Virus record (IMG/VR): IMGVR_UViG_3300045988_018111
Coordinates: 1-43,266 of that record
DNA: 43,266 bases
Direction: 5' to 3' (one strand)
From: a virus
The translations under genes were made by a program, and so were the position numbers. The notes beneath the pieces were generated by a model, which ran no database searches, was not told the DNA's origin, and saw only the letters and a program-made list of their open reading frames with translations. Positions 13,804 to 41,093 of the stretch are shown piece by piece; position 1 is the stretch's first letter; every line of letters begins with the position of its first letter.

Positions 13804-13804
13804 C

Positions 13805-14932
13805 ATGGCGAATTGCATCAAATGTAAAGCAGCGCTGCCGGATGGCGCGCTGTTTTGTCCTATATGCGGAAAAAAGCAAGCATCTGTCGACCGAAAAGCC
13901 ACAAAACGCGGCAACGGGACGGGGACGGTCTATAAGCGCGGCTCTTCATGGGTAGCCGAAATCACCAAAGGCTACCGTGAAGAAGACGGCAATCTGACCC
14001 GCGTGAAAGCGAAAAAATGCGGCTTCCGCACAAAACGAGAAGCCTTAGAATATATCCCCATGCTGCGGACGCAAAAGCCCCGTGAAAAGGATATCACTTG
14101 GCGCAAGGCATATGAGCTTTGGTTCCCAACGCATCGCGCCGACAAGTCCACGCTGAATTGCTACGCCGCTGCCGAAAAGTATTTTGCACCGATCGAATTT
14201 ATGAAGCTGGCCGCGGTCGAGATTGATGACATCCAAGAATGCATTGATGACTGCCCGCGCGCCAAACAGACGAAAAAGAATATGCGCACCGTGTGCAGCC
14301 TGATCTACAAGTATGCCGTTCCGCGCGGATATGCCCCTATGAGTATGGCCCCGTATCTCACCGTCACCGGCGAAAACGCCGCGCCGCGCGCGAGCTTTGA
14401 TGCCGACCAGATCGAGAAGATAAAAGAGGCGTGCGGCGTGATTCCATACGCCGACTATATCTACTGCATGTGTTACCTCGGCTTCCGCCCTACAGAATTT
14501 CTCGGCCTGTCGATTGATAACTACGACAAGAAAGAAAAGGTGCTTCGCGCTGGTATCAAGACTGAAGCGGGCAAGAATAGAACCGTCACGATATCACCCA
14601 AGATTCAGCCCATCATAGACCGGCTGGCGAAAGACAAGATATCCGGCGCGCTGTTCTGTAACGAAGAAGGAAAAGCGTTCAGGTATGACTATTTCCGCGA
14701 CGAGGTTTTCTATCCCACATTAAAGGCAATCGGCATTGACAATCCAATCGAAAACAAGCGGCACAAGTATTCCCCCCATACATGCCGTCATACGTTCGCG
14801 ACGCTGATGAAAAACATTCAGGCATCGGACAAGGACAAACTCGAGCTGATCGGTCACGCAAGCCCCGAAATGCTGCGGTATTATCAGGATGTCAACCTCA
14901 CCGACCTTCGAAAAATCACCGATGCGATATAG
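13805..14932 (+). CDS. int: Tyrosine integrase with N-terminal zinc-ribbon
   Basis: Start trimmed to ATG 13805 (GGAGGGG SD). CIKCKAALPDGALFCPICG ribbon. Box I LGFRPTEFLGL. HTCRHTFATLM and LIGHASPEMLRYYQ catalytic R-H-R-Y pattern. Confidence 0.9.
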   Translation: MANCIKCKAALPDGALFCPICGKKQASVDRKATKRGNGTGTVYKRGSSWVAEITKGYREEDGNLTRVKAKKCGFRTKREALEYIPMLRTQKPREKDITWRKAYELWFPTHRADKSTLNCYAAAEKYFAPIEFMKLAAVEIDDIQECIDDCPRAKQTKKNMRTVCSLIYKYAVPRGYAPMSMAPYLTVTGENAAPRASFDADQIEKIKEACGVIPYADYIYCMCYLGFRPTEFLGLSIDNYDKKEKVLRAGIKTEAGKNRTVTISPKIQPIIDRLAKDKISGALFCNEEGKAFRYDYFRDEVFYPTLKAIGIDNPIENKRHKYSPHTCRHTFATLMKNIQASDKDKLELIGHASPEMLRYYQDVNLTDLRKITDAI

Positions 14933-17824: not shown

Positions 17825-18469
17825 TTACTTCATCGCCGCGAGCTTTCGGATCAGGTCGCCGCCGTATTTGTAAGCGGCGAGGTAGTCCATCGTCGCATCC
17901 GCCAGACCGGAGCGCTTTTTGAGCATTTCGCGGTAGTCCGGCTCCGCAAGCCTGCTCTTGAACTCCTTTTCCCACTTGCCCGCGTTTTCCTTGCCCGACC
18001 AGTAGGCGGGGCACAGCTTGCCCGTCACGTCGAAGTGGCGGATGACGTTGCTCGCGGGGATGTTGTACTTCTTCATCAGAGCTTTCGTCAGCTCAAGTGC
18101 CTGCGCGACGGTCTTCGCGCCCGGCGCGTATACGCCGTTCTTCTTCTCATCGCACAGCTCAATGCTGATGCTGTTTGCGTTCAGGCAGCGGCCGTGCAGC
18201 GTCCCGCCGCCGGTCTGCGCGCAACTCGGGTACTTCTTCCCGCCGACCGCCCACGCGATGCGCAGGTCGTCCACGCTCTGGATGACCTCTTTCTCGTCCA
18301 CGAAGTAGTGCGCGCTCGTCTTCACCACGTTCGATGCGTAGTATTTGGCGTTGTTCAGCGCCGTGTCGCCGTCGTTTCCGGTGTAGTGGATGACGATGTA
18401 GCGAATGCCGCTCGCCGCGCGCGTGCCGCCGACGTTCCCCGCGTTCGCGGGATATTTGCGGATATTCAT
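17825..18469 (-). CDS. Endolysin, N-acetylmuramoyl-L-alanine amidase (Amidase_2/PGRP type)
   Basis: IRYIVIHYTGNDGDTA...SAHYFVD...NSISIELC...NVIRHFDVTGKLCPAYW are the Zn-amidase_2 hallmarks. Confidence 0.9.
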   Translation of the reverse strand: MNIRKYPANAGNVGGTRAASGIRYIVIHYTGNDGDTALNNAKYYASNVVKTSAHYFVDEKEVIQSVDDLRIAWAVGGKKYPSCAQTGGGTLHGRCLNANSISIELCDEKKNGVYAPGAKTVAQALELTKALMKKYNIPASNVIRHFDVTGKLCPAYWSGKENAGKWEKEFKSRLAEPDYREMLKKRSGLADATMDYLAAYKYGGDLIRKLAAMK

Positions 18470-18473
18470 GCGT

Positions 18474-18668
18474 TTATTCTCCCTTCGCGCTGCCCGCGGC
18501 GTTCTGTGTGCCGAAGTAGAACGCGATGACCATGAGGTACACGGTGTTGAATTCCTGCGTCACCTTCGACTGTACTGTCAGCGCGCAGAAGGTCGCCGTC
18601 AGCGCAATCGTCACAAGGCTTTTCACGCTGAGAAGGTTTGCGATTCTCTTGTTCAGTAATTCGTTCAT
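18474..18668 (-). CDS. Holin (two TM helices, 64 aa)
   Basis: LLSVKSLVTIALTATFCALTV ... VYLMVIAFYFGTQ, a clostridial phage holin-like pattern, immediately upstream of the endolysin. Confidence 0.75.
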   Translation of the reverse strand: MNELLNKRIANLLSVKSLVTIALTATFCALTVQSKVTQEFNTVYLMVIAFYFGTQNAAGSAKGE

Positions 18669-18669
18669 G

Positions 18670-18864
18670 TTATTCGTCCTTTCCCTTGATTTTTATTCCC
18701 GCCAGCAGCCCCAGTTCCGCCGTCCACGCGGCGAACCACGCGACGGTCAGGCTATCCGGCACTACCTTGTCATGCGCGGTCAATACGAGCACCGCAATGC
18801 AGTACCAGCAGAGGTTGAGCACTGCCGCGATGACGTACTTGTCCCGCTTTCTCAGCTTTTTCAT
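18670..18864 (-). CDS. Second holin-like membrane protein (64 aa)
   Basis: Start trimmed to ATG 18864 (ATGA overlap). Two hydrophobic helices VIAAVLNLCWYCIAVLVL and VAWFAAWTAELGLLAGI. Confidence 0.6.
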   Translation of the reverse strand: MKKLRKRDKYVIAAVLNLCWYCIAVLVLTAHDKVVPDSLTVAWFAAWTAELGLLAGIKIKGKDE

Positions 18865-19163
18865 AGGGCTACACCAGAAATCAGCCACGCGATAAACGCA
18901 CCAGCCAGCGCCGCGAGAGCCTTGTCGACCAGACTGTCCCAGCGTTTCCCCGCCTTTCCCGTGATGGCCTTTACATCCTCTTTGATTTCTTTGACGTCTC
19001 CCTCAACGGTTTCCTGCTTGGTCGCCAACACCTCGACCGACGTCGCCAGCCTGTCGAGCGCCGTTTGGTGCTCCTGCAACTCATTGATTCGATGCGTATT
19101 GCTCTTGCAGCGTGCATCGATCAGCGCGATCTCTGCGTCATCGTAGTGCTTTGCATTGTCCAT
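18861..19163 (-). CDS. xhlA: XhlA-like lysis-module protein (coiled coil plus C-terminal TM)
   Basis: Coiled N-terminal part, VEGDVKEIKEDVKAI, C-terminal LAALAGAFIAWLISGVAL. The position before holin/holin/amidase mirrors PBSX xhlA-xhlB-xlyA. Confidence 0.5.
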   Translation of the reverse strand: MDNAKHYDDAEIALIDARCKSNTHRINELQEHQTALDRLATSVEVLATKQETVEGDVKEIKEDVKAITGKAGKRWDSLVDKALAALAGAFIAWLISGVAL

Positions 19164-19274: not shown

Positions 19275-22200
19275 TTACGCCGCTTTCTTCCTCATGATTG
19301 CAAGCTGCTCGTCCACCCGCGCGCGGTTCCAGTGGCGAATGCTCTTCCCGACGCCGAAGTCCTCAAATAGGGCCGCGCGCTGTTTATCGGAAAGCCCCTT
19401 CTGCTGATAAACAAGCTCCATGATCTGTAATCCCTCGCTGTTGCTGATGGTATCACCATTTTTGTCCTTCAGGCTTTCGATCCCGCCTTTTGCCAGATAA
19501 AGCGCAATATACTGGGCTTCTGAAACGCCCGTTTTTTTGACGGTATCTATGGCCTTTGCCGCCCATCCGTCCGTTTGGTAATTGCTCACGCTCATTTTCC
19601 CAACGATGTTGGCATATTCGTAGGCTTTCGCAACGGCATCTGCCTTATCGCCGTCGCTCATGGACTTATAGCTCGCAAGTCCCGTGAGCTCGCTGACGAT
19701 CTTATAGGAAGTCTGCCCGCGCTTTGTGGCGTACTTGACGTATTCCTCGCCGGTCAACTGTTTGTTTTCCTTATTCACGGTAAAAGATTTCGGTGCGCGC
19801 TGCGGCAGGACTTTGGCCTCACCGGTCGCCTCATACAGGCGGCTCAATTCATCTTCCATTTTGCTGCCGCTTACCTTCGAGGTATACGCGGGATTCGCAA
19901 AATTGTTAAATGCCCGCGCGATCACTCCTCCGGAGCTTTCCGTGCGTCCCCATGCGTCGATAAAGGGGATCTGCCCGTAGTCAACGCCCGGAATACGCGC
20001 GCTGGCCTTGCCGAGCGCATATTGCATATCCGGCGTCAGGAATTTGTTCTTATCCGTATAGGTCGTCATGCGCTCGCTTTCGCCCGTGCGCTCCGCCTGC
20101 CCGAAGACCGTCGGGATACCCTGCGTCAAATAACTCGTCGCCGCGCTTGCTACCGCACTGGTTAGTGCGTTTGTGTCCCCGGAGGACGCATACCCCACCG
20201 CGTCAAAAACGTCGTTCAGGCTTTGCAGACAGCTCATGGAAAGAAGCGGGTCCGTCACGTTGCTTGCTGCCTGAAGCATATCACTCATAGTGAGATACCC
20301 GTTGTTCGCCTGCATTTGCTCGTAAAGGTTTGCCCCGACGAAAAACGGAAGCGCTTCCGGCGCAAGCCAATCCAGCGTAATACTCGTGCCATTTGGCAGC
20401 TCCATCGCATATTCCTGATGCCCTTGCAGCTCGTCGAACTTTTTCTTCTTCTCGTCATCACCGCCGCTGCCGCGAAGAATGCCCTCTTTCGCCATATAAA
20501 GGCCGAGCATCATCAGCCCCGTGCCGGTCAGACCGGCGGCGGCACGGTCGATCATTTCGGTCGCCTGCATATTACCCTTCTGCACCTGCACAAGGTCATA
20601 GCTTATGCTTTTGAGGAAACCAATAGGGCTGTATTCCACGCCGCGCACCAGAATGTTGGCTGGTGTCTTGCGGAACGGCAGGATTCCTTCGGCGAGGGTG
20701 CTTCCGAGGCGTTTCATCTTGTTATCCCCGCGGTATCTGCCGAGATCGGAGATCATCTGTGAAAACGCATTGGTGTCTCGATAGGTTGCTTTCTGCGCCT
20801 CTCTGATCGCGTATTCGCGTGCCGCTTCAATGCCTTTCCCGCCAGCGACCTGCTCCGCGGTAATGCCATTTGCTTTGCAGAATTGCGCCAGCGCCGCCGC
20901 GTAATGCGGCTTGGAGAACCATGCGTCTTCCGCATCCAGCGCCGTGCTGTTAGATTTGCGCATCGCTTCCAGCAGCTTTGGTTTGAAGATCGTGCGCCCT
21001 TCCTCGATTTCCTGTCGCACATTGACATTATCATTGTACTTGCCGCTGCCGAGAGCCTGCTCGCGAATGTTGGCATAGTCACTCCATGCCGCCTTGATAA
21101 GCCCTGCGTCCTTCGTCGTCAGGATTGCCTTCGTGCGTCCGACTTTGCCGCCGCTCACCGCGTTCGCAGCGCTCTCAATGCCTGCGCCGATGACGTTCTT
21201 TACCGTGACAGCAGGAACAAATCCTACGTTGCCAACGATGTTGCGCACATGCGTGCGTGGATTACCAAGCATCGAAAAGTAGCGCCAAGCGTTCCATTTG
21301 TCAATGAAGCGGCTCGGCATCTGTCTGCCGATATCGCGATAGATTTCCTTCATCGCCTCGGTGCGCGCATCGTCGTCCTTTGCGTTCAGGAACTTCTCAG
21401 CGAGGTCGCGGTCAATCTCCAGATCAGGGGCCTTTTCCCCGTACTGCTTTTTGAGATCTTCTGTCAAGTTCTCCACGCTGCGCTGCGCCGCATAAAGCTG
21501 CGTACCGGGGTCCTGCTGCTTGAGCAGCCGCGTTGCCTGCAACGCCTGTGCCGCATTTCTCTGGCGCTTTACGATGGTGTCGAGCACATCGATAGCTGTC
21601 TCCACATCACCGCTGTTTGCTGCATTGTTGTAGAGCGCCCAGCCAATCGCCGTATTCTCCTTGCTGATTCCCTCTTTGGTGGAATTTTTCCATTTATTCA
21701 AGGTCTTTTGCCAGCCTTCGGTTTTGATGCGGCTTTCTGCGTCACTGATGGACTGCTTGTCCGTATAGCGGTCGTAGGAGAAATCTCCTTTTGCCACCAT
21801 TCGTTCCAACGTCGGCACCATTGCGTCCGGCGTTGCCTTTGCTTCCAGCACCGTGCGGATCGTGCGGCTGACGTATTTGTCGTCCGCCGTTTTCTTCGGC
21901 ACTTGTACCTCTCGGTACGCGCGCTCGCCCGCCGGGATATATCCGTACTTCTTTTTCAACGTTTCGTAGTTTGCCTCAGGGATCTCGCGGGAGAATGCCG
22001 CGTCATTCACGCTGTTGACTTTTGCTAAACGGTCCGCCTCATCTCCGGCGATATATTCCACCGTGTTGACCCCGGCATCCTGCAATGCGGCTTTCAGACG
22101 GTCGCTGCTGTTGTCCGGGATCACCGCTGCCAAAACTTCGTCAAACCCAACGGCGCGCTGGGGCTTGGCCTCAAAGTAGCCGGTGGGCATTTCCGCCGCC

Positions 22201-25200
22201 TCCTGGTAGACGGCCTGGATGTCCTGGGCCGTCTGGCTGCTGATTTTGTACCCCTCCTTGGAGAAGGCCCGCATGATAGCGTCCACCGTCCTCTTGCCCT
22301 TGGACGTTTCCATCAGGATGCTGCCGATGATGTCGCTCTCGACGAAGGAATTGTCGGAATGAGCCTTGTTTCCCTGCTTGATCTTCGTGATGATGCTGCC
22401 GATCTGGTCATCAATGGCCTGGAGCTTTGCTTCATACTCGGTCCCCTCGTCCATGCCCAGCCGCCCACTGTCCGCCTTGATCTCCTGGATGCTGCGGTAT
22501 TCCGGCGTCGCCACGGATTGCAGGGTCTTGGCGCTTGCGCCCCAGGTGCTGCCGCCGCGCTCCTCCTGGCCCTCCTTCATCGCCTTGACGATGTTCTCCA
22601 GGGTGTAGGCATAGTGGAGCTGCGAGAAACTGCGGAGATTGCCGGAGGGGGTGTAGGGGTCCTTGCCATTGTAGATGCCCGCCTCGCCCAGCAGGCCGTC
22701 CAGCTTCCCGGCAATCCACTCCTCAACGGCGTGGTCATCCACGGAGCTGCGCAGCGCGTCAGAGGTAGCCATCCGGTCAATTTCGCCCTTGGTCGCGCCG
22801 CCGTCCTGGTACATATCCCATGCGTGGTGAACGATGTCCTCCAGGGTGAAGATGGAAACGCCGTCCATGGAATTGTCGATGCGGTTCTGCCGTCTTTCGT
22901 TGATCTCCGCGTCGGTCCAATGCCTCTTGACGGCCATTCTGCGGAGCATGGGTTCGCCCTGTTCCCGGTAGTAGTCCCGGAGAATGTCGCGGATGACCTC
23001 GGCATTCTCGCCCAGGGCGTCCTTCACGCTCTCACCGGTCTCCAGGTTGGCCTCGATTTCAGCCAGCGTGTTCACGCCCAGGCGGTCAACCACCTTTTGC
23101 AGGGTGTCGTTACCGAACTTGTCCCACACCTTGTCCATCTTCACCGGCTCCAGACTCTTGCCCTGGTCTGCCAGATAGGCCGCCCGCACCGTGTCCGTGG
23201 AGGCCAGCTTCTCCGCCAGCTCTGCCGTGCTCCTGGTGCTGGTGTTGTCGATGCCCATAGAGCGCAGGGCGGCGCTGTTCCCGAAGATGCCCCCGGCCAC
23301 GGAGACATCCCCGGCCAGCCGGTGCAGCTCGTGCTCCACCTGGGATGCCTTTTTGCTGTTCACGGGGTAATCTACTCGCGGAGCTGTCGGCGTCCAGGCA
23401 TCGCCACCGTACACCTTGTTGGCGCGGAATAGCTGCGGGTCGATGGTGTCCTTGCTGAACACAAGGGAGATGGGGCCGTACTTGGTGTGCCCGTCCCTGG
23501 CTTTTACAATGGCGATAGAGGGCATGGGCAGGCCGCCCAGCTTCAGCGCGGACATGATGCTGGCCTCATCCTTGTTGTGGACGGCGATCAGTTTGTCAGT
23601 CTCTTCGACCGGCGTTTCCATGCTGAACTTCAGCTTGACATTTTGTACGCCACGAGATAGACTATCTACAGAAGCATTCCCTCGCAGAGCGCCGCTGTCC
23701 GCAGCGGAAGAGCCATTAATTTGGGGGATGCTTCTTTCTTGCATCTGCCCAATATTATAGATCATCTTACCGTCTGCGCTCTGCGCCGTCGATATCGTAA
23801 CCTTGTAATATTTCCCGTCAAAGTCTTTGAAAAACGCCGTGCGATAATTCCAACCGCTACTTGCCATGTCTCCATGTCGACTGTTATGATCTACAACGTT
23901 CCTGTCCCCCTTGACAGAAACCTGCGCCAACTCGTCAATATGCGATGCTGCATTTACTTTTCGCTCAAATGCCGCCTCGCTCATAGTACGCCCATCGCTG
24001 GTGTGGTTGTCGCTCAGTTTCCCTGCCGAGGTCGCAGTCAGAACCAATTCGTCGCCATCCGCGCCGATAAGCTTAACGTCTTGTCCACGGCGGATTTTCC
24101 CGTTAATATAGTCTTCCAGCTGTTCGCTCCAACTCTGCGGGTCATTTCCAAAAATGACCTGTCTGTCGGCGCGGACATACTTTTTGCCATCGGCAGCCTC
24201 TTCAATGCTCGCCCTGCCATTTATTTTGCTTGGCGGCGCACGCGTGCTTTCCTGCGCAACGGTTTCGCTCTCCACCTTGATATGCGCAAGAAGAAACGCT
24301 GCCGCATCGCTGATCTCACTGTCGGCGAAAATGTTCATATCGCCGAGGCTGTCGCAAACCACCTCTTCCCAAATTTCCTGCGCCGTCATTTCGGTGCCGG
24401 CATAAGCGTCTGCATACGCCGTGCAGAGGGAGTCGACCTCACCGCCGGTAAAGGTCTTATCGATGCGCGTGCGTACCTCGTTCAAATCGACTTCGCCCTT
24501 TGCGATCATATCATGTCCGGCCTCATGCCGCATGATCTGGTACGACGTAAATTCCGGATGATCCGCACGGATAAATACGCGGTCACCTGAAACGTAGCCG
24601 CGCACCTGGAACGTTTTCCCGCTCTTGTCACGGAACGTCAGATTATTTCCGGCAAAAAACGTCACGCGCAGGCCGCGCTCTTTGGCGAGGTCCTTCGCCT
24701 TGCGCATTTCCGCCGTCTCGTTCTTCACAAGATAGACGCTGTCATTGAATGCGCCTCTGCCGATGCCGAAGCTCGCAGTGCTTACTTTTTCTCCATAATC
24801 GAGCGAAGCTGCTTCGCTGTCTGCGAAGTGTCGCCCTTCCTTCCGGCCCGGATTTCGTCCTGCGCCTTCTTCCACGCCTCGTACTTCTCCGCGGGGATCC
24901 GCACCGTTATCCCGTTCGCTGCCGTTGCGTAAATGTACTGCTTCTCCATGTTCGGCTCCTTCCTGCTGCGCATATTCTGTGCGCAGCTCATCCATTGTCA
25001 CATCTCCTGTCTCGAGGGCAAGGCGGTTGTCAGTTACATACTTGTCAAAGCCGGTCGCCTGCACCTCTGCGCCTGCGATCTGCTGCTTTGCTGCAATATA
25101 ATCCGTATTGGGGGCAACCGCCGTTCCATCAACAGCAGTGTACCCATTCGTCAGCATGTCGTCAAGAACGATCTCGAGCGTTTTCGCCGCTTTGACATTC

Positions 25201-26957
25201 TCCTGTCCATTATCGTTGATGATGCGCTGCGCTGCATCAATGATTTGCGTGCGCGTCAGGCCCTCGTTCATCGCCTTGCGCATGGCGGGGGTCTCGAATA
25301 TCTGATTGTTTCTCTGGTATCCGTTTGCCGTCCGCTGCCGCGCGCCCTTCTGCTGTCCGCGCGAAAGGCTTATATCAGCGATACCGGCGATCTGCTCTGC
25401 CGCCGTACTGTAATAACCGTGCAGCTCGGGGTGGTCAAACTGGAAAGCGTTTACATTTCTGCTCGATACATTTTCCTTCGTGCGGCTGTCAATATGCTCG
25501 CCCGTTCCTGCCTCTTTCTTCGCGTCGTTCTGCCCCGCGACATAGCCTGCATAGGCCGTCTCATTCGTCGGGTTCGGGTTCGCCTTTCCCTCCACGCCCG
25601 CATTGTAGGCAGGGATAAAGTCCTTCACGTGCTGTGCCGTGTCCTTGCCCTCCTGATACGAGCCGCGAATCGCTTTTCGCCCGCTCTCACCCAGGGAGTT
25701 ATCAAAGCGCGCGAATCGGTTTGCCGCAGCTTCCACGCCGCCACCAATACCGCCGAGAATGCCGCCAACAAGGAAGTCATTCAGAACCTCCGCCGCTTCC
25801 AGCTCGCTGTAACTCCCACCGAGCGTCTTGCCGTTGTAGATCATCTGCAGCGCGGGCTGGACAAGATCCTCGATCACTTCCTCGCCGCCCTCTTCAATGA
25901 ACGACAGCGCGATCTTGCCCGCCGCGCTGTTATTGAGCCCCGACATCGTGCGCTCGATGACGCTATCTAAGAAGCCCCTGCCGAACATTTTCTTGAACGG
26001 CGCTGCCGCGTTGCCGATCTTCTCGGTTGCCACGCTAAGTGCGCCGCTTGCAAAGCCATAGTTGACCTGCTGCTCGTGCGTTGCGCCCTGTCTGCGTGCT
26101 TCCTGCGCGCTTCCGCCCGTACTGCGGACAAACATCGCAGGGAGTGCACTGCCACCCGTCAGAAGCCCGAGAGCCGCGTCCATGCCCATCTGCGCGCCCG
26201 CCACGCCAACGTCGACTGCAAGCCGCCCCGCGCCGCCAAGATCGCGCTTTGCCTTGCTGATGTCCTTTGCGCCGCTGTCGGCGAGTCGGTCGGCGGCCTT
26301 GTAGATGTTGCCCGCCGTGCGCTCCACCTCGCCGCCCTCGCCGTAAGCTTTTAGGTATGCGGCTTTCCGCGCTTCCAGTGCCGCAATGACATTTCGAGCA
26401 GTGTCGCGCTCGCTTTCGGTGCTGCTGGGGTCTGCAAGCACGTCCCGCTGTGCCTTGATATCCTGATCCCACAGGGCAATTTCGGTGTTTGCTTCCTCGC
26501 GTCGCTGCAATCCGCTGCCGGTCTGCGCCATACCGGTAAGGTTGACGAGCCCCGCGCCATAGGTTTTCGCCGCGCCCTTGACGGTGTTGCCGACGCGCTG
26601 CGCGACCGTGGGGGCTTTTACCTCCTGCACGTGCTGTTCGAACGCTTCTTTGCTCTGGTAGTTCTTCGCGTCCTTCTTCTGTAAGGCCCCCTGCGCAAGA
26701 TTCTGCGCAAGCGCGCTTTGATTTTTTGGCGTCACGACATTCTGCCGCGTGCGGAACATGGGGCTGCTCGACTTTGCGGGAATCGTTGCCGCCTTGCTCG
26801 GTTGCACTGTCGGCTTCTTCTGCACCACATTGCCCGTAGGGGATGTGCGCTTCACATCCCCCGTTCTCACAAGCCTGCCGTGCGTGCCGGTTCCAACAAC
26901 CGTCGTCTGGCCCTTGCTCGCTTCCACTTCCGGATTCGCTTTTACTAATCGTCCCAT
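19275..26957 (-). CDS. Giant 2560-aa virion-associated polyvalent-type protein with zincin HEXXH motif
   Basis: Single open frame, GAGGAGGG SD. Hydrophobic Gly-zipper segments (LAVDVGVAGAQMGMDAALGLLTGG; FLVGGILGGIGGGV). IMRHEAGHDM at aa 809..818 (HEAGH at 24513..24527). Late TM-like LTGTGLMMLGLYMA. Its position between tail genes and lysis is typical of ejection/internal proteins. Confidence 0.7.
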   Translation of the reverse strand: MGRLVKANPEVEASKGQTTVVGTGTHGRLVRTGDVKRTSPTGNVVQKKPTVQPSKAATIPAKSSSPMFRTRQNVVTPKNQSALAQNLAQGALQKKDAKNYQSKEAFEQHVQEVKAPTVAQRVGNTVKGAAKTYGAGLVNLTGMAQTGSGLQRREEANTEIALWDQDIKAQRDVLADPSSTESERDTARNVIAALEARKAAYLKAYGEGGEVERTAGNIYKAADRLADSGAKDISKAKRDLGGAGRLAVDVGVAGAQMGMDAALGLLTGGSALPAMFVRSTGGSAQEARRQGATHEQQVNYGFASGALSVATEKIGNAAAPFKKMFGRGFLDSVIERTMSGLNNSAAGKIALSFIEEGGEEVIEDLVQPALQMIYNGKTLGGSYSELEAAEVLNDFLVGGILGGIGGGVEAAANRFARFDNSLGESGRKAIRGSYQEGKDTAQHVKDFIPAYNAGVEGKANPNPTNETAYAGYVAGQNDAKKEAGTGEHIDSRTKENVSSRNVNAFQFDHPELHGYYSTAAEQIAGIADISLSRGQQKGARQRTANGYQRNNQIFETPAMRKAMNEGLTRTQIIDAAQRIINDNGQENVKAAKTLEIVLDDMLTNGYTAVDGTAVAPNTDYIAAKQQIAGAEVQATGFDKYVTDNRLALETGDVTMDELRTEYAQQEGAEHGEAVHLRNGSERDNGADPRGEVRGVEEGAGRNPGRKEGRHFADSEAASLDYGEKVSTASFGIGRGAFNDSVYLVKNETAEMRKAKDLAKERGLRVTFFAGNNLTFRDKSGKTFQVRGYVSGDRVFIRADHPEFTSYQIMRHEAGHDMIAKGEVDLNEVRTRIDKTFTGGEVDSLCTAYADAYAGTEMTAQEIWEEVVCDSLGDMNIFADSEISDAAAFLLAHIKVESETVAQESTRAPPSKINGRASIEEAADGKKYVRADRQVIFGNDPQSWSEQLEDYINGKIRRGQDVKLIGADGDELVLTATSAGKLSDNHTSDGRTMSEAAFERKVNAASHIDELAQVSVKGDRNVVDHNSRHGDMASSGWNYRTAFFKDFDGKYYKVTISTAQSADGKMIYNIGQMQERSIPQINGSSAADSGALRGNASVDSLSRGVQNVKLKFSMETPVEETDKLIAVHNKDEASIMSALKLGGLPMPSIAIVKARDGHTKYGPISLVFSKDTIDPQLFRANKVYGGDAWTPTAPRVDYPVNSKKASQVEHELHRLAGDVSVAGGIFGNSAALRSMGIDNTSTRSTAELAEKLASTDTVRAAYLADQGKSLEPVKMDKVWDKFGNDTLQKVVDRLGVNTLAEIEANLETGESVKDALGENAEVIRDILRDYYREQGEPMLRRMAVKRHWTDAEINERRQNRIDNSMDGVSIFTLEDIVHHAWDMYQDGGATKGEIDRMATSDALRSSVDDHAVEEWIAGKLDGLLGEAGIYNGKDPYTPSGNLRSFSQLHYAYTLENIVKAMKEGQEERGGSTWGASAKTLQSVATPEYRSIQEIKADSGRLGMDEGTEYEAKLQAIDDQIGSIITKIKQGNKAHSDNSFVESDIIGSILMETSKGKRTVDAIMRAFSKEGYKISSQTAQDIQAVYQEAAEMPTGYFEAKPQRAVGFDEVLAAVIPDNSSDRLKAALQDAGVNTVEYIAGDEADRLAKVNSVNDAAFSREIPEANYETLKKKYGYIPAGERAYREVQVPKKTADDKYVSRTIRTVLEAKATPDAMVPTLERMVAKGDFSYDRYTDKQSISDAESRIKTEGWQKTLNKWKNSTKEGISKENTAIGWALYNNAANSGDVETAIDVLDTIVKRQRNAAQALQATRLLKQQDPGTQLYAAQRSVENLTEDLKKQYGEKAPDLEIDRDLAEKFLNAKDDDARTEAMKEIYRDIGRQMPSRFIDKWNAWRYFSMLGNPRTHVRNIVGNVGFVPAVTVKNVIGAGIESAANAVSGGKVGRTKAILTTKDAGLIKAAWSDYANIREQALGSGKYNDNVNVRQEIEEGRTIFKPKLLEAMRKSNSTALDAEDAWFSKPHYAAALAQFCKANGITAEQVAGGKGIEAAREYAIREAQKATYRDTNAFSQMISDLGRYRGDNKMKRLGSTLAEGILPFRKTPANILVRGVEYSPIGFLKSISYDLVQVQKGNMQATEMIDRAAAGLTGTGLMMLGLYMAKEGILRGSGGDDEKKKKFDELQGHQEYAMELPNGTSITLDWLAPEALPFFVGANLYEQMQANNGYLTMSDMLQAASNVTDPLLSMSCLQSLNDVFDAVGYASSGDTNALTSAVASAATSYLTQGIPTVFGQAERTGESERMTTYTDKNKFLTPDMQYALGKASARIPGVDYGQIPFIDAWGRTESSGGVIARAFNNFANPAYTSKVSGSKMEDELSRLYEATGEAKVLPQRAPKSFTVNKENKQLTGEEYVKYATKRGQTSYKIVSELTGLASYKSMSDGDKADAVAKAYEYANIVGKMSVSNYQTDGWAAKAIDTVKKTGVSEAQYIALYLAKGGIESLKDKNGDTISNSEGLQIMELVYQQKGLSDKQRAALFEDFGVGKSIRHWNRARVDEQLAIMRKKAA
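24782..24949 (-). CDS. Embedded +1-frame ORF (55 aa) inside the giant gene
   Basis: AGGAAGGAG lies 6 nt before ATG 24949. MEKQYIYATAANGITVRIPAEKYEAWKKAQDEIRAGRKGDTSQTAKQLRSIMEKK. Third codon positions are strongly G/C as in real genes here, whereas the giant frame over the same bases is A/T at third positions and R/G/E low-complexity. Confidence 0.45.
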   Translation of the reverse strand: MEKQYIYATAANGITVRIPAEKYEAWKKAQDEIRAGRKGDTSQTAKQLRSIMEKK

Positions 26958-28187
26958 TTAGCCCTCCTCGTAGGAATAGCCGTACTGCGTCAGCAGCTTC
27001 TGCATTTCTGCCTTCTGATCACTCGTCATCAGCGGCCATGCCTTGTCGAGCGTCGAAAGGATACGCTCGCCTTCACCGTTTTTCAGCGACGTGTTGAATC
27101 CGCTCAGTAGAGCAATAAACTGACCCTGCGGCAGTGTCTTGCCGCTGCTGCCGCTTCCGCTGCCGCCGCCCTGCCCCTCGAGCCAGCTCTCATAATCGTC
27201 ATACAAACTGCTTGAAGAGGAAAAGCCGTACTTCTTATAGTTGTTGGAGATAAAGCTCTTGGGATAGCCGCTTGCCTGCGCCGCTGCGAACAAGCCATCA
27301 TAATCCGCCTCGCCGCCGCCCGTAGGCGTGGTGATGACGCGGGTATTTCTTCTCGCGGCCTGCTGCGCGGCCTGCTGCAATTTATACTGCCATTCCGCAT
27401 TATAGCGTGCGTCCTCGATGGCGTCGCGTTCCTTCTGGTAGTCATAGTTCAGCTTGTCCTGCTGCTTCTGATACGCCAGCGCATCCGCCGTCTGCTGGTC
27501 GCCCACCTGATCACGCGCGAGCTGATAGAGGTAGTTTCGGTCAGCCATCCAGCGGTTGTAGTTGTTGTCCTCAAGGCCGATGAGCGTATTCAGGTCGGCG
27601 CGGTCGCCGCTCAATTTATCCTGATACATGCTATAGGCAAGCTGCTGTAATTCGGGGATCTTGTCCGTCATCTGGCTCATCTGGTAGTCGCTCGCCTGTT
27701 GGCTCGCTGCCACCGCCGCCGTGGACGGCATCCCCCCCGTCATCACTGCCGCCTTGCCGAGCACATCCTCAGCGCTGCGGTCTGCCTCGCGCGTGTACTG
27801 CTTGCGATACTGCTGATAGAGCGGGTCGCTCGCCGCGTCGTAGGAAAACGGCGTGCGATTCAGCAGCGCGTCGAGCTTTGCACTGATCTGTCCGCTCTGG
27901 TCGTAGTTGTAGCTGCTGTCGCCCAGCTTATCGAGCCAGCTTGTGTCAGCCTTTGCAGGGCTCGCGCCCGTGCCGAGTTTGATGTACTCGCTGCCGTCCA
28001 CGCCGCCGGAATAGTCGTACTTCGCGCGGATTTTCTCCGCTGCGTCGTGCGCCGCCTGCTGGCCCGCCTTGTCTCCCTCGGCATAGGCCTTGTTGTAGGC
28101 CTCTGTATACTGCCGGATGAGATCAAGGTCGCCCGAATCGTTGATGAGCGTCAGGTCTGTATTCTTGTGTTTGAAATTATCTGCCAT
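26958..28187 (-). CDS. Virion internal/tail-associated protein (409 aa), Q/A/Y-rich
   Basis: ORF track. GTGAGGGGA SD. No recognisable motif. Directly precedes the giant gene. Confidence 0.6.
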   Translation of the reverse strand: MADNFKHKNTDLTLINDSGDLDLIRQYTEAYNKAYAEGDKAGQQAAHDAAEKIRAKYDYSGGVDGSEYIKLGTGASPAKADTSWLDKLGDSSYNYDQSGQISAKLDALLNRTPFSYDAASDPLYQQYRKQYTREADRSAEDVLGKAAVMTGGMPSTAAVAASQQASDYQMSQMTDKIPELQQLAYSMYQDKLSGDRADLNTLIGLEDNNYNRWMADRNYLYQLARDQVGDQQTADALAYQKQQDKLNYDYQKERDAIEDARYNAEWQYKLQQAAQQAARRNTRVITTPTGGGEADYDGLFAAAQASGYPKSFISNNYKKYGFSSSSSLYDDYESWLEGQGGGSGSGSSGKTLPQGQFIALLSGFNTSLKNGEGERILSTLDKAWPLMTSDQKAEMQKLLTQYGYSYEEG

Positions 28188-28194
28188 TGTCCCC

Positions 28195-29781
28195 TCACTT
28201 TCTGCCGCCCGTCACGTATTCGTACTCGAGCGCATAGAGCCGGTATTCTCCTGTGGCTTTGATTTTTAATCTAAAGTGGTCGCAGCGGCGGATCGGGCAG
28301 TTGAGCGTGAAAACGTCTTTCTCCTGTGCCCCGCAGCGGTCGACCTCTTCCCACGCGCCGTCGTCGAACTTGACAAGGAACACGACCGTTGCACCCTTCT
28401 CGCATTCCAGCCGCGCCCGCACACGCTGCACGTGCTTCGCGTCAAACGATCCGCCGTCGTAGTCGGCAAACTCCGCCTCGCTGCTGACGGCTCCCTCGCG
28501 TGTTGCGCCGGTCGGGATATCTGCCGGATTCCCCAGCAGCACGCACCCACCGTCTACTAAGGCCATGATACCGCCCGAATAGGCCATTTGCACCACGGCA
28601 AGCGTATCTTCCTTATGCCACACGCCGTTTTCGCTGCTGTAGCAGTACAGCGCCGCCTTGCCATCCTCTTTCAGGCTCACGTAGTAGTTGAGGCCGTCGC
28701 TTCCTCCCACCGCGTCAGAGAGGCGCGCATCGTCGCCCAGCGTGCGGGAGATACAGCGCGGCATGCCGCCGCTGTACGCCATGATGCCGACCTTTGAGAG
28801 GTAATAGAGCGTTTCCCCCGCCACGGCGAGGCTCTTGTGGTTTCCCTTCATCACACCGAGCACAGCACTTGACATGAGTTGGAAGTTTGTCGGAATCGTG
28901 CCGTACATCTTGAAAATTTTGTCTTCTTTGAAAAAGCACGGGTAACCAAGGTAGCTCACGCACGCCGTGAATGCTCCCGCCGTGCCGCTCTCCACGCTGA
29001 ACGCATCCGTGGATAGTCCGTCAAACACGTTCCAGTTGTACGGGTCGCCGAGCTTTGAAGCAAAGATGCTGTCGCCCTTGCAGCCCCACACGCGGTTCTC
29101 GTTCGTGCAGACAAAATCCATGTCGGGAACGCTGCGCTTGAGCGTGACTGTTCCGGGCTCCGTGATGCTTTCCTGCCCATCGGGCAGGCGGAAAGTGTTT
29201 TCATAAAAGCGCAGCGTCTTTTTGTCTTCGCTGATCTCTCGGATGATGGGCGTGCGGTTGTTGTAGGTCTCCTTTGTACAGCCCGAGATCGTCACGGCGT
29301 CGCCCACGTTGAATGGGAACGCCGCGCCGGTCGTCGTGATGCTGTTTGCCGCCGCCTTTTCGTCGGCATACGTACCATTCCCGAATTTCAGCCCCGCCGC
29401 GGCGTAGCTCGCCTCCATCGGCTTGATCGTGCCGTCCTTTTCACACACGATCTTGTCGGGGAAGATGAGCACGCGCTCGCCCAGTGCACAGAAAGTCTTT
29501 TCGCTGTCTGCGACCGTCGACTTCTCCTCGCCGTTGACGTAGAGCTTCGTTCCGTATACCTCGTAGAGCTTTCCTGCACTGAAAATGCCGTTTGCCGTCC
29601 CCATATCCTTGCGGACGGTATAGCGCCTCGCACGGGGGGAAAGAAGCGGGAAGTATCGCGCCGACAGGTTCTTCATGTCGTAGAGCTCGCCGCCCGCCGC
29701 ACCGAACGTGTGGTTGATGCCTCCGAATTTCTCTTGCTGCACGCGCCGGTTCGTATATGCCGTGATATCAGGCAGTCTCAT
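28195..29781 (-). CDS. Tail hub/nozzle-type structural protein candidate (528 aa)
   Basis: ORF track. Beta-rich repetitive sequence. The functional call rests on position only. Confidence 0.5.
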   Translation of the reverse strand: MRLPDITAYTNRRVQQEKFGGINHTFGAAGGELYDMKNLSARYFPLLSPRARRYTVRKDMGTANGIFSAGKLYEVYGTKLYVNGEEKSTVADSEKTFCALGERVLIFPDKIVCEKDGTIKPMEASYAAAGLKFGNGTYADEKAAANSITTTGAAFPFNVGDAVTISGCTKETYNNRTPIIREISEDKKTLRFYENTFRLPDGQESITEPGTVTLKRSVPDMDFVCTNENRVWGCKGDSIFASKLGDPYNWNVFDGLSTDAFSVESGTAGAFTACVSYLGYPCFFKEDKIFKMYGTIPTNFQLMSSAVLGVMKGNHKSLAVAGETLYYLSKVGIMAYSGGMPRCISRTLGDDARLSDAVGGSDGLNYYVSLKEDGKAALYCYSSENGVWHKEDTLAVVQMAYSGGIMALVDGGCVLLGNPADIPTGATREGAVSSEAEFADYDGGSFDAKHVQRVRARLECEKGATVVFLVKFDDGAWEEVDRCGAQEKDVFTLNCPIRRCDHFRLKIKATGEYRLYALEYEYVTGGRK

Positions 29782-39098: not shown

Positions 39099-41093
39099 TT
39101 ACACCCCCGGCATTGCCGCGCTGCTTCCCGTGTCCATGTTCGGCTTAGACTGTTCGGCAAGCTTCTGCATGTACGGCGTCTGTGCGCTCTGTGCGTCAGC
39201 GTTCTTGCTCTCAATTCCACCGCTGCCGCTCTTACGTGTCGAGCCGCCACTCTGCGTGCCGCCCGCCGTTCCGATGCCCATGTCCTGTCCCGTAAGCTGC
39301 TGGATAACCGCGAGCGCCTTTTGCAGCTGATCGCTCTGCTGCTGCACGACGTTGTAGAGCGTCGCGCCCTCGTTGACCTGGCTCTTGATCTTGTCGATTC
39401 CTTCGAAGTCCATCATGTCGAGCGCAATCATGCTTTCCTGTGCCCTGTCTGGGGAGAAGAATCCCAGCGAATACAGCTCTTTTGCCCGCTCGTTCTGTTC
39501 CGCACGGGAGAAGGGATTCTTCTTCTGCGCCTTGATCTTGATGTCAAAGACCGGCCTGCGGAACAGGTCATTGCCGAGGCTATCCACACCAGTCACCTGA
39601 TCGCCGAGCTCGTTCACGCCGATCTGCGCATACTCGTAGGGCATTTCATTCGTGATGCGGAAAGTACGCGCTGCGTCGTAGAACTGCCGCATGCGCTCAA
39701 TGCACAGCTTCACGATCTTCGCCTGCGCGCGGTAGCACGCCGAAATCATATCGCGGCTCGCCTTGTTGCCCGCTTCCTGCAATGCGCTGATCGCCGCAGC
39801 AGCTGTCGCGCCGGAGGACGTGCCGCCGTTGGAAACGTCGCGGTTTGCGCTCGTTTCCTTCATCTCGTCGATCTTCATCTGCACGATATTCGCGTAGATG
39901 GAATCGAGCGGGCGCGTCGTTACTTCGCGGAGCCTGCTCTCGTCGATCTGGCCGGACACGTGGATGATCGGCTTGCGCCAGTCAAGGAACTCTTCTTCGT
40001 TGATGTTCAGGCTTTCACTCGCAAAGTACCGGCGCTTGCTGCCCATCATTGAAGTTTCGAGGATGTTGCCCCACAGCTTGTCGATGTAGAGCTGCGGGTC
40101 CTTTGCAATGGCCGTATATCCGAATCCCGCAGGTGTGCCCTTTTCTGGGAACAGCACGTCAAACACGAACGGATATTCGCCGTCTTCGTAGAAGCCGCCC
40201 TCCGCATATTCTGGGTCATTTTCGCTGGCGTAGATGATATGCTCCTCGTCGATAAACTTCGCGTAGTGCAGTACCGTCCTCCCGTCTGTGGCCTTCTTGC
40301 GGTAATACCAGTCGATCACGGCGACCTTGTTGCTCGTGTCCACTGTGTCGTCGTACTCGTATTTTGCCGTTTCAATGCTGCTGCCGCTGAGCTTATCCGC
40401 AAACTGCGGGTATTCGTCCTCGATGATGTCGCGGTCGACGAGCGCCACCGTAAACACGTTGCGGCTCTTCTGGATGTCCTCAATACCCGGCTCCCAGAAG
40501 ATATTCAGCGGGTCAATGCCCTCGATAGCGATGTCGCCGAGCCCGTTGTCTTTCTCCTTGTCCCAAAACACCCCATAGAGCGCCACACCGTGTTTGAGCT
40601 TTTCCCACCACTCGAAGCTGTATGTGCTGTCAAATTCGTTGTATTCCATGATGACCGGCAGCACAGACGAGAGCGTCTGCGCGCTTTCCTCGTCGCTCTG
40701 CTCGCGAGGCAGGCATACGGGCTCGGGGTAGTTGTCCATCGCGTCGGCGTGCTTATTCATGATCGAATTGAACAGCCATGCACTCGCAGGCTCGGGCGAT
40801 TCCCCCGCGTCTTTCGCCCCGCGTCGGATATCCTCCCAATGCCGAAGCTTCCACCAGCGCTCCTCGCTGATGATGCGATTCTCGAAGTTGCTCTTGCCCT
40901 GCTTGTACTTTTGCAGCGTTTCTACGGCGTCACCGATCTCCTTGCTGCCGATGGCTGCGCCGCTGCTCATCGCCGCGTCGCTGTCGCGGAATGCGCCTAC
41001 AAGCGGCGCTTCTGCCTTTGCATCCAACATCGCAGCAGCGCCAGCCGCGTCGGCCTGCTGCTGCGTCTGCGGGAATTTTCTCGTTCCTGCCAT
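39099..41093 (-). CDS. Portal protein
   Basis: 664 aa directly after the large terminase. AGGAGGGGGAAG SD. Acidic and aromatic-rich core typical of portals. The call rests on size, position and general resemblance. Confidence 0.8.
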   Translation of the reverse strand: MAGTRKFPQTQQQADAAGAAAMLDAKAEAPLVGAFRDSDAAMSSGAAIGSKEIGDAVETLQKYKQGKSNFENRIISEERWWKLRHWEDIRRGAKDAGESPEPASAWLFNSIMNKHADAMDNYPEPVCLPREQSDEESAQTLSSVLPVIMEYNEFDSTYSFEWWEKLKHGVALYGVFWDKEKDNGLGDIAIEGIDPLNIFWEPGIEDIQKSRNVFTVALVDRDIIEDEYPQFADKLSGSSIETAKYEYDDTVDTSNKVAVIDWYYRKKATDGRTVLHYAKFIDEEHIIYASENDPEYAEGGFYEDGEYPFVFDVLFPEKGTPAGFGYTAIAKDPQLYIDKLWGNILETSMMGSKRRYFASESLNINEEEFLDWRKPIIHVSGQIDESRLREVTTRPLDSIYANIVQMKIDEMKETSANRDVSNGGTSSGATAAAAISALQEAGNKASRDMISACYRAQAKIVKLCIERMRQFYDAARTFRITNEMPYEYAQIGVNELGDQVTGVDSLGNDLFRRPVFDIKIKAQKKNPFSRAEQNERAKELYSLGFFSPDRAQESMIALDMMDFEGIDKIKSQVNEGATLYNVVQQQSDQLQKALAVIQQLTGQDMGIGTAGGTQSGGSTRKSGSGGIESKNADAQSAQTPYMQKLAEQSKPNMDTGSSAAMPGV

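Follow-up and report, generated by a model that had tools for sequence, protein, structure and literature searches.

A giant polyvalent protein of a gut Oscillospirales prophage, probably an ejection protein, with a conserved scaffold, exchangeable cargo and a candidate self-processing peptidase

Results

A giant gene closes the virion operon of a temperate prophage

The window analysed here, namely the whole stretch of 43,266 nucleotides, represents a temperate prophage of gut Oscillospirales whose portal is of the P22 type, and one homologue of its giant protein carries the name Gemmiger formicilis. The giant ORF occupies 17.8% of the window, so that the size of 2560 aa and the genome share of about 18% given in a first-pass annotation of the sequence are confirmed by measurement. 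The gene is real and evolves under purifying selection; it is no chance ORF, because its full-length homologues form more than 120 clusters (84-97% identical, on contigs of ~43-44 kb) and dN/dS ranges from 0.06 to 0.5 along its whole length.

The giant is the last gene in the virion operon, with two internal-virion-type genes directly before it and lysis genes after it (Table 1). A collagen-like fibre gene also lies upstream, and these fibre and phrog_511 genes on one side and the holin and endolysin genes on the other bear out the placement between tail genes and lysis cassette that the first-pass annotation had described. The TAA stop of the 409-aa gene abuts the ATG of the giant, a GAGGAGG Shine-Dalgarno sequence lies inside the 3′ end of the 409-aa gene, and the giant is translationally coupled to the internal-virion-type genes. 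Homologues of both the 409-aa and the 528-aa protein recur in other genomes, and the minimal relative P0182 has the same terminal position in its virion module. With the 413-aa protein encoded upstream of this minimal relative, the 409-aa protein has only a C-terminal stretch of ~40 residues in common (E=8e-5), which makes orthology plausible, though weakly so. Searches of NCBIfam returned no match for the giant or its two partner proteins.

Table 1. Features of the giant protein and of its neighbouring genes, with positions in the window and in the protein.
Feature	Nucleotides	Strand	Residues	Remarks
Giant ORF, polyvalent protein	19275..26957	-	1-2560	2560 aa, ATG start
N-terminal low-complexity region	26238..26957	-	1-240	Ala/Lys/Thr/Gln-rich; by composition
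Module A core	25683..26240	-	240-425	glycine-zipper N-terminal anchor; homology block
Module B	25038..25550	-	470-640	separate homology block, 29 distant giants; in minimal A-B-E form
Module C	24198..24995	-	655-920	HEXXH domain, probable gluzincin-type metallopeptidase; 78 distant homologues
HEAGH	24513..24527	-	811-815	conserved motif
E865-V-V-C-D869 (ExxxD)	24351..24365	-	865-869	in a later helix; candidate third zinc ligand
Junction motif ASIE	24201..24212	-	916-919	C/D border
Module D	23673..24197	-	921-1095	LPD3-like domain; conserved polar residues
Junction motif ASVD		-	1095-1098	second copy at D/P border
Cassette P	21993..23672	-	1096-1655	PBECR5 RNase and ~340-aa uncharacterised region (phrog_22978); recombinant
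PBECR5 domain (PF18814)	23004..23630	-	1110-1318	Pfam 225 bits vs cutoff 25, E=1.5e-66
Junction motif FSME	23616..23627	-	1111-1114	D/P border
Junction motif FSRE	21984..21995	-	1655-1658	P/E border
Block E	19398..21992	-	1656-2520	865 aa, conserved, mostly alpha-helical C-terminal scaffold
C-terminal sub-domain of block E	19398..19850	-	~2370-2520	also alone at C-termini of other giants
409-aa upstream partner gene	26958..28187	-		homologues also found with block-E giants of other genomes
528-aa 'internal virion protein'	28195..29781	-		phrog_511
P22-type portal protein	39099..41093	-		PF16510, 94 bits vs cutoff 26
Lysis cassette	17825..19163	-		two genes, directly downstream of the giant
XhlA-like holin	18861-19163	-		lysis cassette
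Amidase_2 endolysin	17825-18469	-		lysis cassette

A conserved scaffold carries shuffled modules

The giant is built of six blocks in the order A, B, C (HEXXH), D (LPD3-like), P (PBECR5) and E, and in its distant relatives (2328 clusters at 50% identity) these blocks are shuffled, the minimal form being A-B-E. The length of the giants ranges from 1300 to 3420 aa across relatives through the gain and loss of cassettes. Relatives sharing modules with the giant carry ART-PolyVal (6/17), PBECR3, LPD23, LPD38 and LPD3 domains, and in the giants of phages Ab9 and BF1-TP2 cassette P stands beside a GNAT domain, or beside InPase, ART-PolyVal and LPD38. Against 50,697 phage records, megablast with the giant gene gave no match, tblastn with the giant matched only cassette P and a fragment of module A, and tblastn with block E by itself found nothing even when the cutoff was relaxed to E<=1.

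Module A as a whole (aa ~30-425) forms the N-terminus of about 49 distant giants, with a median start at residue 26, and its invariant residues are G244, Q256, D260, R278, T311-E312, E356, E359-E360, G398 and G402. The hydrophobic glycine-zipper segments that had been read at the N-terminus could be confirmed at aa 244-412 (DNA 25722-26228), with conservation of the glycines G244, G251, G398, G402 and G405, but they are not membrane-grade. No 19-residue window in the whole giant reaches a Kyte-Doolittle value of 1.6 (maxima 1.34-1.38), and a transmembrane reading is therefore unsupported. The same holds for the membrane-like helices that had been proposed at the C-terminus, since the segment in question, LTGTGLMMLGLYMA (aa 2143-2156), stays below 1.2 and, in the AlphaFold2 (AF2) model, is part of a long helix within a helical domain of soluble appearance.

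Block E has 32 distant homologues (25-68% identity), is found in 88 species genomes, and was modelled by AF2 with a pLDDT of 76. Among the isolates whose prophages contain it are Lawsonibacter hominis NSJ-51, L. celer NSJ-47, Pseudoflavonifractor phocaeensis and Gemmiger formicilis. A Foldseek search of this model against the PDB gave nothing significant, as did sequence searches of the PDB with the whole giant and with the A-B-E profile, solved ejection proteins included; aa 1-240 gave TolA-like low-complexity matches only. The scaffold modules A, B and E match no Pfam, PHROG or NCBIfam model, and PHROGs holds no family for the minimal A-B-E proteins. LPD38 (PF18857) was considered as a relative of block E and rejected, with no Pfam hit, a non-significant BLASTP result and an hhalign probability of 0.4%.

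Module C is a probable gluzincin-type metallopeptidase

The HEAGH motif, at exactly the position given in the first-pass annotation, is the sole HEXXH of the giant, against a chance expectation of 0.028. Among 62 homologues of 33-58% identity, H811, E812, H815, C868 and D869 show no variation, with E865 conserved at 98%. The AF2 model of module C (pLDDT 88, pTM 0.84) places five strands at aa 764-797 and then the HEAGH helix, in line with the beta-rich segment that had been seen ahead of the motif; in model numbering the elements are a helix at 50-61, strands at 65-98, the HEXXH helix at 106-120 and the ExxxD helix at 160-172. The MPTase core is described in PMC5512222 as an N-terminal helix and a beta-sheet ahead of the HEXXH helix, and the predicted zincin-like order of helices and strands in module C fits this description.

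Nevertheless, Foldseek against the PDB found no solved zincin, ArdC and lethal-factor-type folds included (best E 0.53, TM <0.2), sequence searches of the PDB with the module C profile gave nothing significant, and none of the Pfam zincin models, including PF18818 (MPTase-PolyVal), scored above threshold. In the BFVD, the Foldseek hits of module C fell on parts of other polyvalent proteins (E 3e-4 to 1e-2), and entries annotated as IrrE-like or peptidase came up only at E ~1. Foldseek may overlook a small zincin core, and the PDB negative therefore lowers, and does not exclude, the zincin claim. Thus, of the zincin first read from the HEXXH and of the structure prediction recommended with it, the conserved HEXXH...ExxxD residues and the zincin-like element order stand, whereas neither Pfam nor Foldseek recognises a zincin. 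From the motifs and the secondary-structure order, module C is a probable gluzincin-type metallopeptidase.

Cassette P carries a PBECR5 RNase and is exchanged by recombination

By its Pfam score, the PBECR5 RNase, a signature domain of polyvalent proteins, is the one confidently nameable domain of the giant. The first-pass annotation had found most of the protein unnameable by eye and had advised domain-wise HMM searches; these recognise nothing in A, B and E, but they name PBECR5, which had been missed. A set of 12 non-redundant PBECR5 homologues, down to 34% identity, retains H1127 and T1189/T1191 without exception, and these residues are candidates for the BECR active site as given in PMC5512222, a His in the N-terminal helix with a conserved Ser/Thr. 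Cassette P has a dS of 1.12, versus 0.04-0.10 in the flanking modules, with breakpoints at aa ~1090 and ~1690, which indicates that the PBECR5 cassette has been swapped by recombination among otherwise near-identical prophages; P0024 carries one of the divergent cassette alleles. This clean swap of an RNase module marks cassette P as the arms-race part of the giant and therefore as a candidate anti-defence effector.

Preceding cassette P, module D retains a conserved polar set (K980, K1000, H1006, D1008, E1009, H1028, D1045). The LPD3 model (PF18798) scores 15.8 bits on it, below the cutoff of 27, gives weak full-length matches in 5 of 15 module-D homologues (best E 8e-4), and a PDB sequence search with the module D profile gave nothing significant; module D is probably a divergent LPD3 relative.

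A short motif marks the module borders and co-occurs with module C

The motif [KR]-x-S-R-[ED] marks module borders. All four loose copies in the giant lie at such borders, and three of them (ASIE, ASVD, FSME) are degenerate. Outside module C, the strict motif is enriched in C-bearing giants, at 72 versus 32+-6, but not in C-less giants, at 26 versus 24+-5. An independent genome sample points in the same direction, with 6 versus 2.7 in the C-bearing proteins, of which it holds only six, and 7 versus 17.9 in the C-less ones. Because it is enriched only in giants with module C, the junction motif is a candidate self-cleavage site. The recombination breakpoints coincide with motif positions as well, some copies fall inside conserved domains and not in linkers, and the link between motif and protease could stem from shared ancestry of the C-bearing giants.

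Discussion

Based on these findings, we propose, at a probability of roughly 70%, that the giant is a phage-type polyvalent protein, being the largest internal (ejection) protein of a podovirus-like phage, with a cargo slot and self-processing. First, the scaffold A + B + E would carry a slot for interchangeable cargo cassettes, filled in the source phage by a gluzincin-like peptidase (C), an LPD3-like domain (D) and the PBECR5 endoRNase cassette (P). The giant would be made late, its translation coupled to that of the other internal virion proteins, and once packaged in the capsid it would leave together with the DNA by way of portal and tail. Upon delivery, the module C peptidase could then cut it at the [KR]-x-S-[RIM]-[ED] junctions; early in infection, the RNase and the D domain freed in this way would attack, among other targets, RNA of the host or of a defence system. 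The podovirus morphology itself is deduced from the portal type and the gene order.

The polyvalent nature of the giant follows from its composition, its neighbourhood and its relatives. It combines several distinct effector-type domains (PBECR5 above threshold, the HEXXH module and the LPD3-like module) with a prophage virion-gene neighbourhood and mosaic architectures among relatives, and it is a genuine polyvalent protein because in some relatives the place of its domains is taken by ART-PolyVal, PBECR3 or LPD domains. As with the polyvalent proteins described by Iyer, Burroughs, Anand, de Souza and Aravind (2017; PMC5512222), it is multidomain and stands in a virion gene context; it combines a PBECR-family RNase with an LPD-type domain and a HEXXH metallopeptidase-like hub, and its orthologues are mosaic. 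Unlike them, it contains no MuF, portal-fusion, DarA-N or LPD38 domain by Pfam, and its HEXXH module fails the MPTase-PolyVal model; the searched passages of that paper make no mention of a junction motif tied to the peptidase module.

The placement of the giant further resembles that of known ejection proteins. In P22 (gp7/gp20/gp16) and T7 (gp14/gp15/gp16) these are encoded by three consecutive genes after the tail genes, the largest being last. The giant is likewise the last and largest of three genes, at the end of a late operon beside internal virion genes, one of which matches phrog_511; however, it is 2-4 times larger than these proteins, carries enzymatic cargo, and resembles none of the solved ejection proteins (T7 gp14-16 and others) in the whole-giant and A-B-E sequence searches of the PDB or in the block E fold search.

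Two giant virion proteins offer, by analogy, a precedent for delivery of the giant with the DNA. JC1 gp69, a 'DarB-like' protein of 4515 aa from a Bcep22-like phage, is virion-associated by proteomics (PMC9144972), and like the giant it is the last podovirus morphogenesis gene just before the lysis genes and takes up ~20% of the genome. The likeness lies in description and gene position; neither a methyltransferase nor a helicase (DarB-type) domain is detected by Pfam in the giant. DarB and N4 vRNAP identities were both rejected, with no RNAP, methyltransferase or helicase modules in Pfam or NCBIfam. The second, phi24B gp47 of Stx podophages (2811 aa, LPD5/LPD1/LPD38/MuF-C), is abundant in virions by mass spectrometry, is invisible in the cryo-EM map, and has been proposed as a capsid-packaged ejection protein (bioRxiv 10.64898/2026.04.10.717836). 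Both it and the giant are giant polyvalent proteins of temperate podovirus(-like) phages, the latter presumably packaged too, whereas none of its four domains is found in the giant by Pfam, and its host is a Gram-negative enterobacterium, unlike the gut Oscillospirales. Together with PBECR5, the domains of the relatives and the operon position, these analogues support the polyvalent, probably injected protein that the first-pass annotation had suggested, for which we infer packaging and injection.

An alternative that is unlikely but keeps appreciable weight is that module C is no self-processing protease and instead acts on host or defence proteins or on cell-wall peptides, the motif being a linker or a recombination joint. 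In PMC5512222, effector roles of MPTase domains are listed as possible, and N4 vRNAP and ArdC are delivered unprocessed. In the phi24B study, a peptidoglycan-related function is proposed for the peptidase domain (bioRxiv 10.64898/2026.04.10.717836), and no peptidoglycan hydrolase domain was found by Pfam or NCBIfam elsewhere in the giant or in its partners. The coincidence of breakpoints with motif positions would also suit a recombination joint. However, the motif is enriched only in C-bearing giants and depleted in C-less ones, which a mere linker or recombination joint does not predict.

It is improbable that the giant, although made late, stays unpackaged and acts in the producing cell or lysate, for example by poisoning competitors or by influencing superinfection or the timing of lysis. 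Such a role would suit a scaffold with no recognised virion-association domain (MuF, portal fusion, DarA-N), but translational coupling to internal-virion-type genes, a terminal position in virion modules that is kept across distant relatives, and the virion location of the analogous giants of JC1 and phi24B argue against it. Tape measures commonly have glycine-zipper segments and long stretches of helix, and helices dominate block E. No other ORF in the window is very long, and none besides the giant has the length of a tape measure, as the first-pass annotation had noticed in speaking of a phage that lacks a tape-measure gene; yet it is highly improbable that the giant belongs to a long-tailed phage as a tape measure or tail-lysin into which enzymatic domains are embedded, given the P22-type portal, the fibre genes before and the lysis genes directly after the giant, the want of flanking tail tube, chaperone, Dit and Tal genes and of any tape-measure match in Pfam, PHROGs or NCBIfam, and a length range among relatives unexpected for a ruler.

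Going beyond an ejected polyvalent protein with cargo slot and self-processing, we tentatively suggest, as a possibility and not as the expected outcome, that A-B-E is a plug-and-play delivery chassis of gut Oscillospirales podophages, in which module C, as a dedicated and previously unclassified gluzincin-like module, would cut the [KR]-x-S-R-[ED] junctions after ejection and free the cargo, while the junctions would also serve as joints for the exchange of cassettes, such as the PBECR5 RNase, between phages. If true, this would be the first defined protease/cleavage-site pair for polyvalent proteins, which are thought to deliver several counter-defence activities at the first moments of infection, and the chassis could interest engineered phage protein delivery. 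The locus offers a very large unannotated scaffold family, drawn from abundant human-gut Firmicutes prophages, and pairs a conserved candidate protease with a short co-occurring motif; the processing hypothesis is therefore directly testable.

A further parallel to module C comes from the DUF4157/eCIS_core 'PVC-metallopeptidase' (PF13699; PMC8213781), a HExxH domain found on cargo toxins of a phage-derived injection device, often via long linkers. DUF4157 spans ~80 aa, whereas module C spans ~200 aa with extra helices, and its matches to the module C family lie below the Pfam threshold (17.6 bits versus a cutoff of 22, in 3 of 16 members); these matches cover the strands and the HEXXH helix.

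The giant protein as a probable polyvalent ejection and cargo protein

The reading of the 2560-aa giant protein as a polyvalent effector or ejection protein, put forward by the first-pass annotation, is the best supported one, as a PBECR5 domain lies in the giant itself and ART-PolyVal, PBECR3 and LPD domains occur in its relatives; we regard it as a putatively virion-packaged polyvalent ejection and cargo protein. We infer its packaging, its proteolysis and its RNase targets, and propose that the scaffold formed by modules A, B and E (see table) would provide incorporation into the virion and exit, that the peptidase would free cargo at the module junctions, and that the RNase and D domains would be active at an early stage of infection. 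Precedents for packaged giants are the N4 vRNAP and the P1 Dar proteins, the JC1 gp69 detected in virions by mass spectrometry (PMC9144972), and the phi24B gp47, abundant in virions, invisible by cryo-EM and a proposed ejection protein (bioRxiv 10.64898/2026.04.10.717836). The kind is already known, so that the giant represents no new category; what is new is an A-B-E scaffold family that lacked annotation, a HEXXH module that existing models do not cover, the clean exchange of the RNase module as a cassette and, as far as sequence statistics indicate, a junction motif linked to the peptidase.

The ORF is real, with an ATG start and 17.8% of the window. Its full-length homologues form >120 clusters (84-97% identity, contigs of ~43-44 kb), one of them named Gemmiger formicilis, and in a codon comparison with one relative dN/dS is 0.06-0.5 across the ORF. 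The genes around it all lie on the minus strand, in the order TerS, TerL, P22-type portal (PF16510, 94 bits), scaffold-like protein, major capsid protein, collagen-like fibre, DUF6273 protein, CBM5_12 protein, Gp58-like protein, 528-aa protein (a match to phrog_511, 'internal virion protein'), 409-aa protein, giant ORF, XhlA-like holin and Amidase_2 endolysin. The ATG of the giant lies immediately 3′ of the TAA of the 409-aa gene, with GAGGAGG just upstream, and no second ORF in the window is of sufficient length for a tape measure. P0182, a minimal A-B-E relative, is also encoded at the end of a virion module, and the portal there is again P22-type.

The phage is temperate, as follows from the integrase together with the repressor, ANT and RecT/YqaJ genes present in relatives, and a prophage-host junction adjoining bacterial GerA and LysR genes is found in the related contig L004.

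Coordinates of the giant ORF, its parts and other features
Feature	Window	Strand	Residues of giant	Remark
Giant ORF	19275-26957	-		2560 aa
Ala, Lys, Thr, Gln-rich segment	26238-26957		1-240	
Module A			30-425	N-terminal in relatives
Module A core	25668-26330		~210-430	
Glycine-rich segments			244-412	
Module B			470-640	
Module C			655-920	with HEXXH
HEAGH	24513-24527		811-815	
Module D			905-1100	
Module P	21993-23672		1096-1655 (match boundaries 1100-1650)	with PBECR5
PBECR5 domain			1110-1318	
Segment after PBECR5	21993-23003		1319-1655	~340 residues
phrog_22978 match			1097-1692	function unknown
Block E			1650-2520	C-terminal in all cases
LTGTGLMMLGLYMA			from 2143	
E C-terminal sub-domain	19398-19850		~2370-2520	last ~150 residues
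Junction motif copy	24201-24212		916	C/D border
Junction motif copy	23664-23675		1095	D/P border
Junction motif copy	23616-23627		1111	D/P border
Junction motif copy	21984-21995		1655	P/E border
Tyrosine integrase	13784-14932	+		
409-aa partner, C-terminal segment	26961-27080			
Collagen-like tail-fibre gene	33739-35790	-		

Modular architecture and relatives

An exhaustive search with aa 1-1100 matched 2328 representative clusters at 50% identity, mostly giants of 2000-3500 aa, and the module borders were taken from the match boundaries of these relatives. The smallest are A-B-E, of ~1560-1830 aa, and in larger ones C, D, P or unmatched segments are inserted. Among 17 diverse relatives, Pfam finds ART-PolyVal in six, and PBECR5, PBECR3, LPD23, LPD38 and LPD3 in one each. 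In the giant itself the HMM searches name PBECR5 as the sole Pfam domain (E=1.5e-66) and phrog_22978 as the sole PHROGs family. The P cassette alone is common to the giant and the giants of two cultured phages, namely that of Acinetobacter phage Ab9 (2839 aa; it carries a GNAT domain, and its gene is placed after internal virion proteins) and gp68 of Bacteroides phage BF1-TP2 (3633 aa, with InPase, ART-PolyVal and LPD38).

Within the PBECR5 domain, H1127 and T1189/T1191 are kept down to 34% identity, in agreement with the active site of His plus Ser/Thr given for BECR RNases by Iyer et al. (PMC5512222). The segment that follows always accompanies PBECR5 and is common to phrog_22978, Ab9 and BF1-TP2; no family names the region, which may serve as a partner of the RNase or as its specificity domain. 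In module D a set of polar residues is strongly conserved (K980, K1000, H1006, D1008, E1009, H1028 and D1045), and 5 of 15 members gave weak matches that span the LPD3 profile; the module is probably a divergent LPD3, a domain of unknown function.

Block E is conserved in 32 distant giants at 25-68% identity, its invariant residues being mainly Pro, Gly and Asn; its AF2 model is mainly helical (pLDDT 76), and neither fold nor profile search found a PDB match. The C-terminal sub-domain, the best-predicted part of E, is also the C-terminus of seven giants devoid of the rest of E, and may act in targeting or packaging. Among species-representative genomes, a scan detected block E in 88, nearly all gut Oscillospirales or other Clostridia (Pseudoflavonifractor, Lawsonibacter, Oscillibacter, Dysosmobacter, Faecousia and Gemmiger), invariably at the end of 1300-3420-aa ORFs and often downstream of genes homologous to the 409-aa and 528-aa partners.

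Both the glycine-rich segments and the string LTGTGLMMLGLYMA are present as first annotated, but the label 'membrane-like' is unsupported, because the hydropathy maximum over all 19-residue windows of the giant is 1.38, below the classical transmembrane value of 1.6. Residues 1-240 matched nothing but low-complexity sequence of the TolA domain-II type, suggesting that the N-terminal segment is extended or disordered.

The HEXXH module

The HEAGH lies where the first-pass annotation placed it and is the single HEXXH in the giant (0.028 expected by chance). H811, E812, H815, Y848 and D869 are invariant in 62 homologues (33-58% identity), in which E865 is 98% conserved, and C868 is invariant in a 16-sequence alignment; E865-x-x-x-D869 is spaced like the Glu helix found in gluzincins of the thermolysin and neprilysin type. 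The AF2 model is confident (pLDDT 88, pTM 0.84), comprising a helix at 50-61, five strands, a helix at 106-120 bearing HEAGH, two helices, a helix at 160-172 bearing ExxxD, and a last helix. This order agrees with the MPTase core described by Iyer et al., wherein a variable insert separates the two catalytic helices (PMC5512222). Sub-threshold matches to PF13699 (DUF4157, HExxH 'PVC-metallopeptidase') in 3 of 16 members cover the last strands and the HEXXH helix. Among viral models, Foldseek found one homologue (TM 0.85) and segments of other phage polyvalent proteins (E 3e-4 to 1e-2). Against solved structures it gave no match (best E 0.53, TM <0.2), profile searches of PDB sequences were empty, and no Pfam zincin model rose above threshold. 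The zincin claim stands as to conserved residues and model order but not as to a solved fold or Pfam model, and module C is likely a zincin-like metallopeptidase, assigned to no named family.

A junction motif associated with module C

The motif [AFMTYK]-S-[RIMV]-[ED] has four copies in the giant, 4/4 at module borders. Across 150 distant giants there are 143 copies of the strict form, x-S-R-[ED], versus 68±8 in shuffles, in the context [KR]-[AFY]-S-R-[ED]-[LT]-D (e.g., DIRYSRE, KKFSRE and GKASRE). The motif lies ≤25 aa from 23% of homology-segment ends versus 5% of random positions; some copies fall within conserved domains. The enrichment is limited to C-bearing giants (72 versus 32±6, z 6.6, the copy beside C left out), whereas C-less giants of like length have 26 versus 24±5. 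Independent giants from genome loci point in the same direction, with 6 versus 2.7 in six C-bearing and 7 versus 17.9 in 45 C-less giants. Such a pattern would be as expected from a protease with cognate sites, in statistics that do not control for shared ancestry. In the searched passages of Iyer et al. (PMC5512222), none on such a motif was found.

Cassette exchange between prophages

Close relatives share 96-100% identity over aa 400-1100 and 1650-2560, versus 60-79% in the P cassette. Against the relative L003 (10001-17662), the P cassette has a dS of 1.12 (dN/dS 0.5), and modules B, C, D and E have values of 0.04-0.10, with breakpoints at aa ~1085-1100 and ~1650-1700; therefore, the P cassette was replaced through recombination with a divergent allele between otherwise near-identical prophages. 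The homologue P0024 shows 86% identity overall, and 46% in the PBECR5 domain. The module A core is a divergent allele too (dS 0.86), but, in contrast to the P cassette, under strong purifying selection (dN/dS 0.09).

Additional observations

The N-terminus of the tyrosine integrase gave weak, sub-threshold zinc-ribbon model matches. Likeness of the 409-aa partner to the 413-aa protein upstream of a minimal A-B-E relative (L006:8741-9979) is limited to the last ~40 residues (E=8e-5), which may be a conserved interaction tail. Four block-E contigs, L030, L056, L066 and L070, are labelled Bacteroidales, Escherichia coli, Lentisphaeria and Alloprevotella; since they sit among ~80 Clostridia records, the labels are probably metagenome binning errors rather than true hosts. 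The part of the window richest in GC (0.63-0.66) contains the collagen-like tail-fibre gene, whose product differs in length among close relatives (650 aa in L005, 680 aa in L003 and 743 aa in L004).
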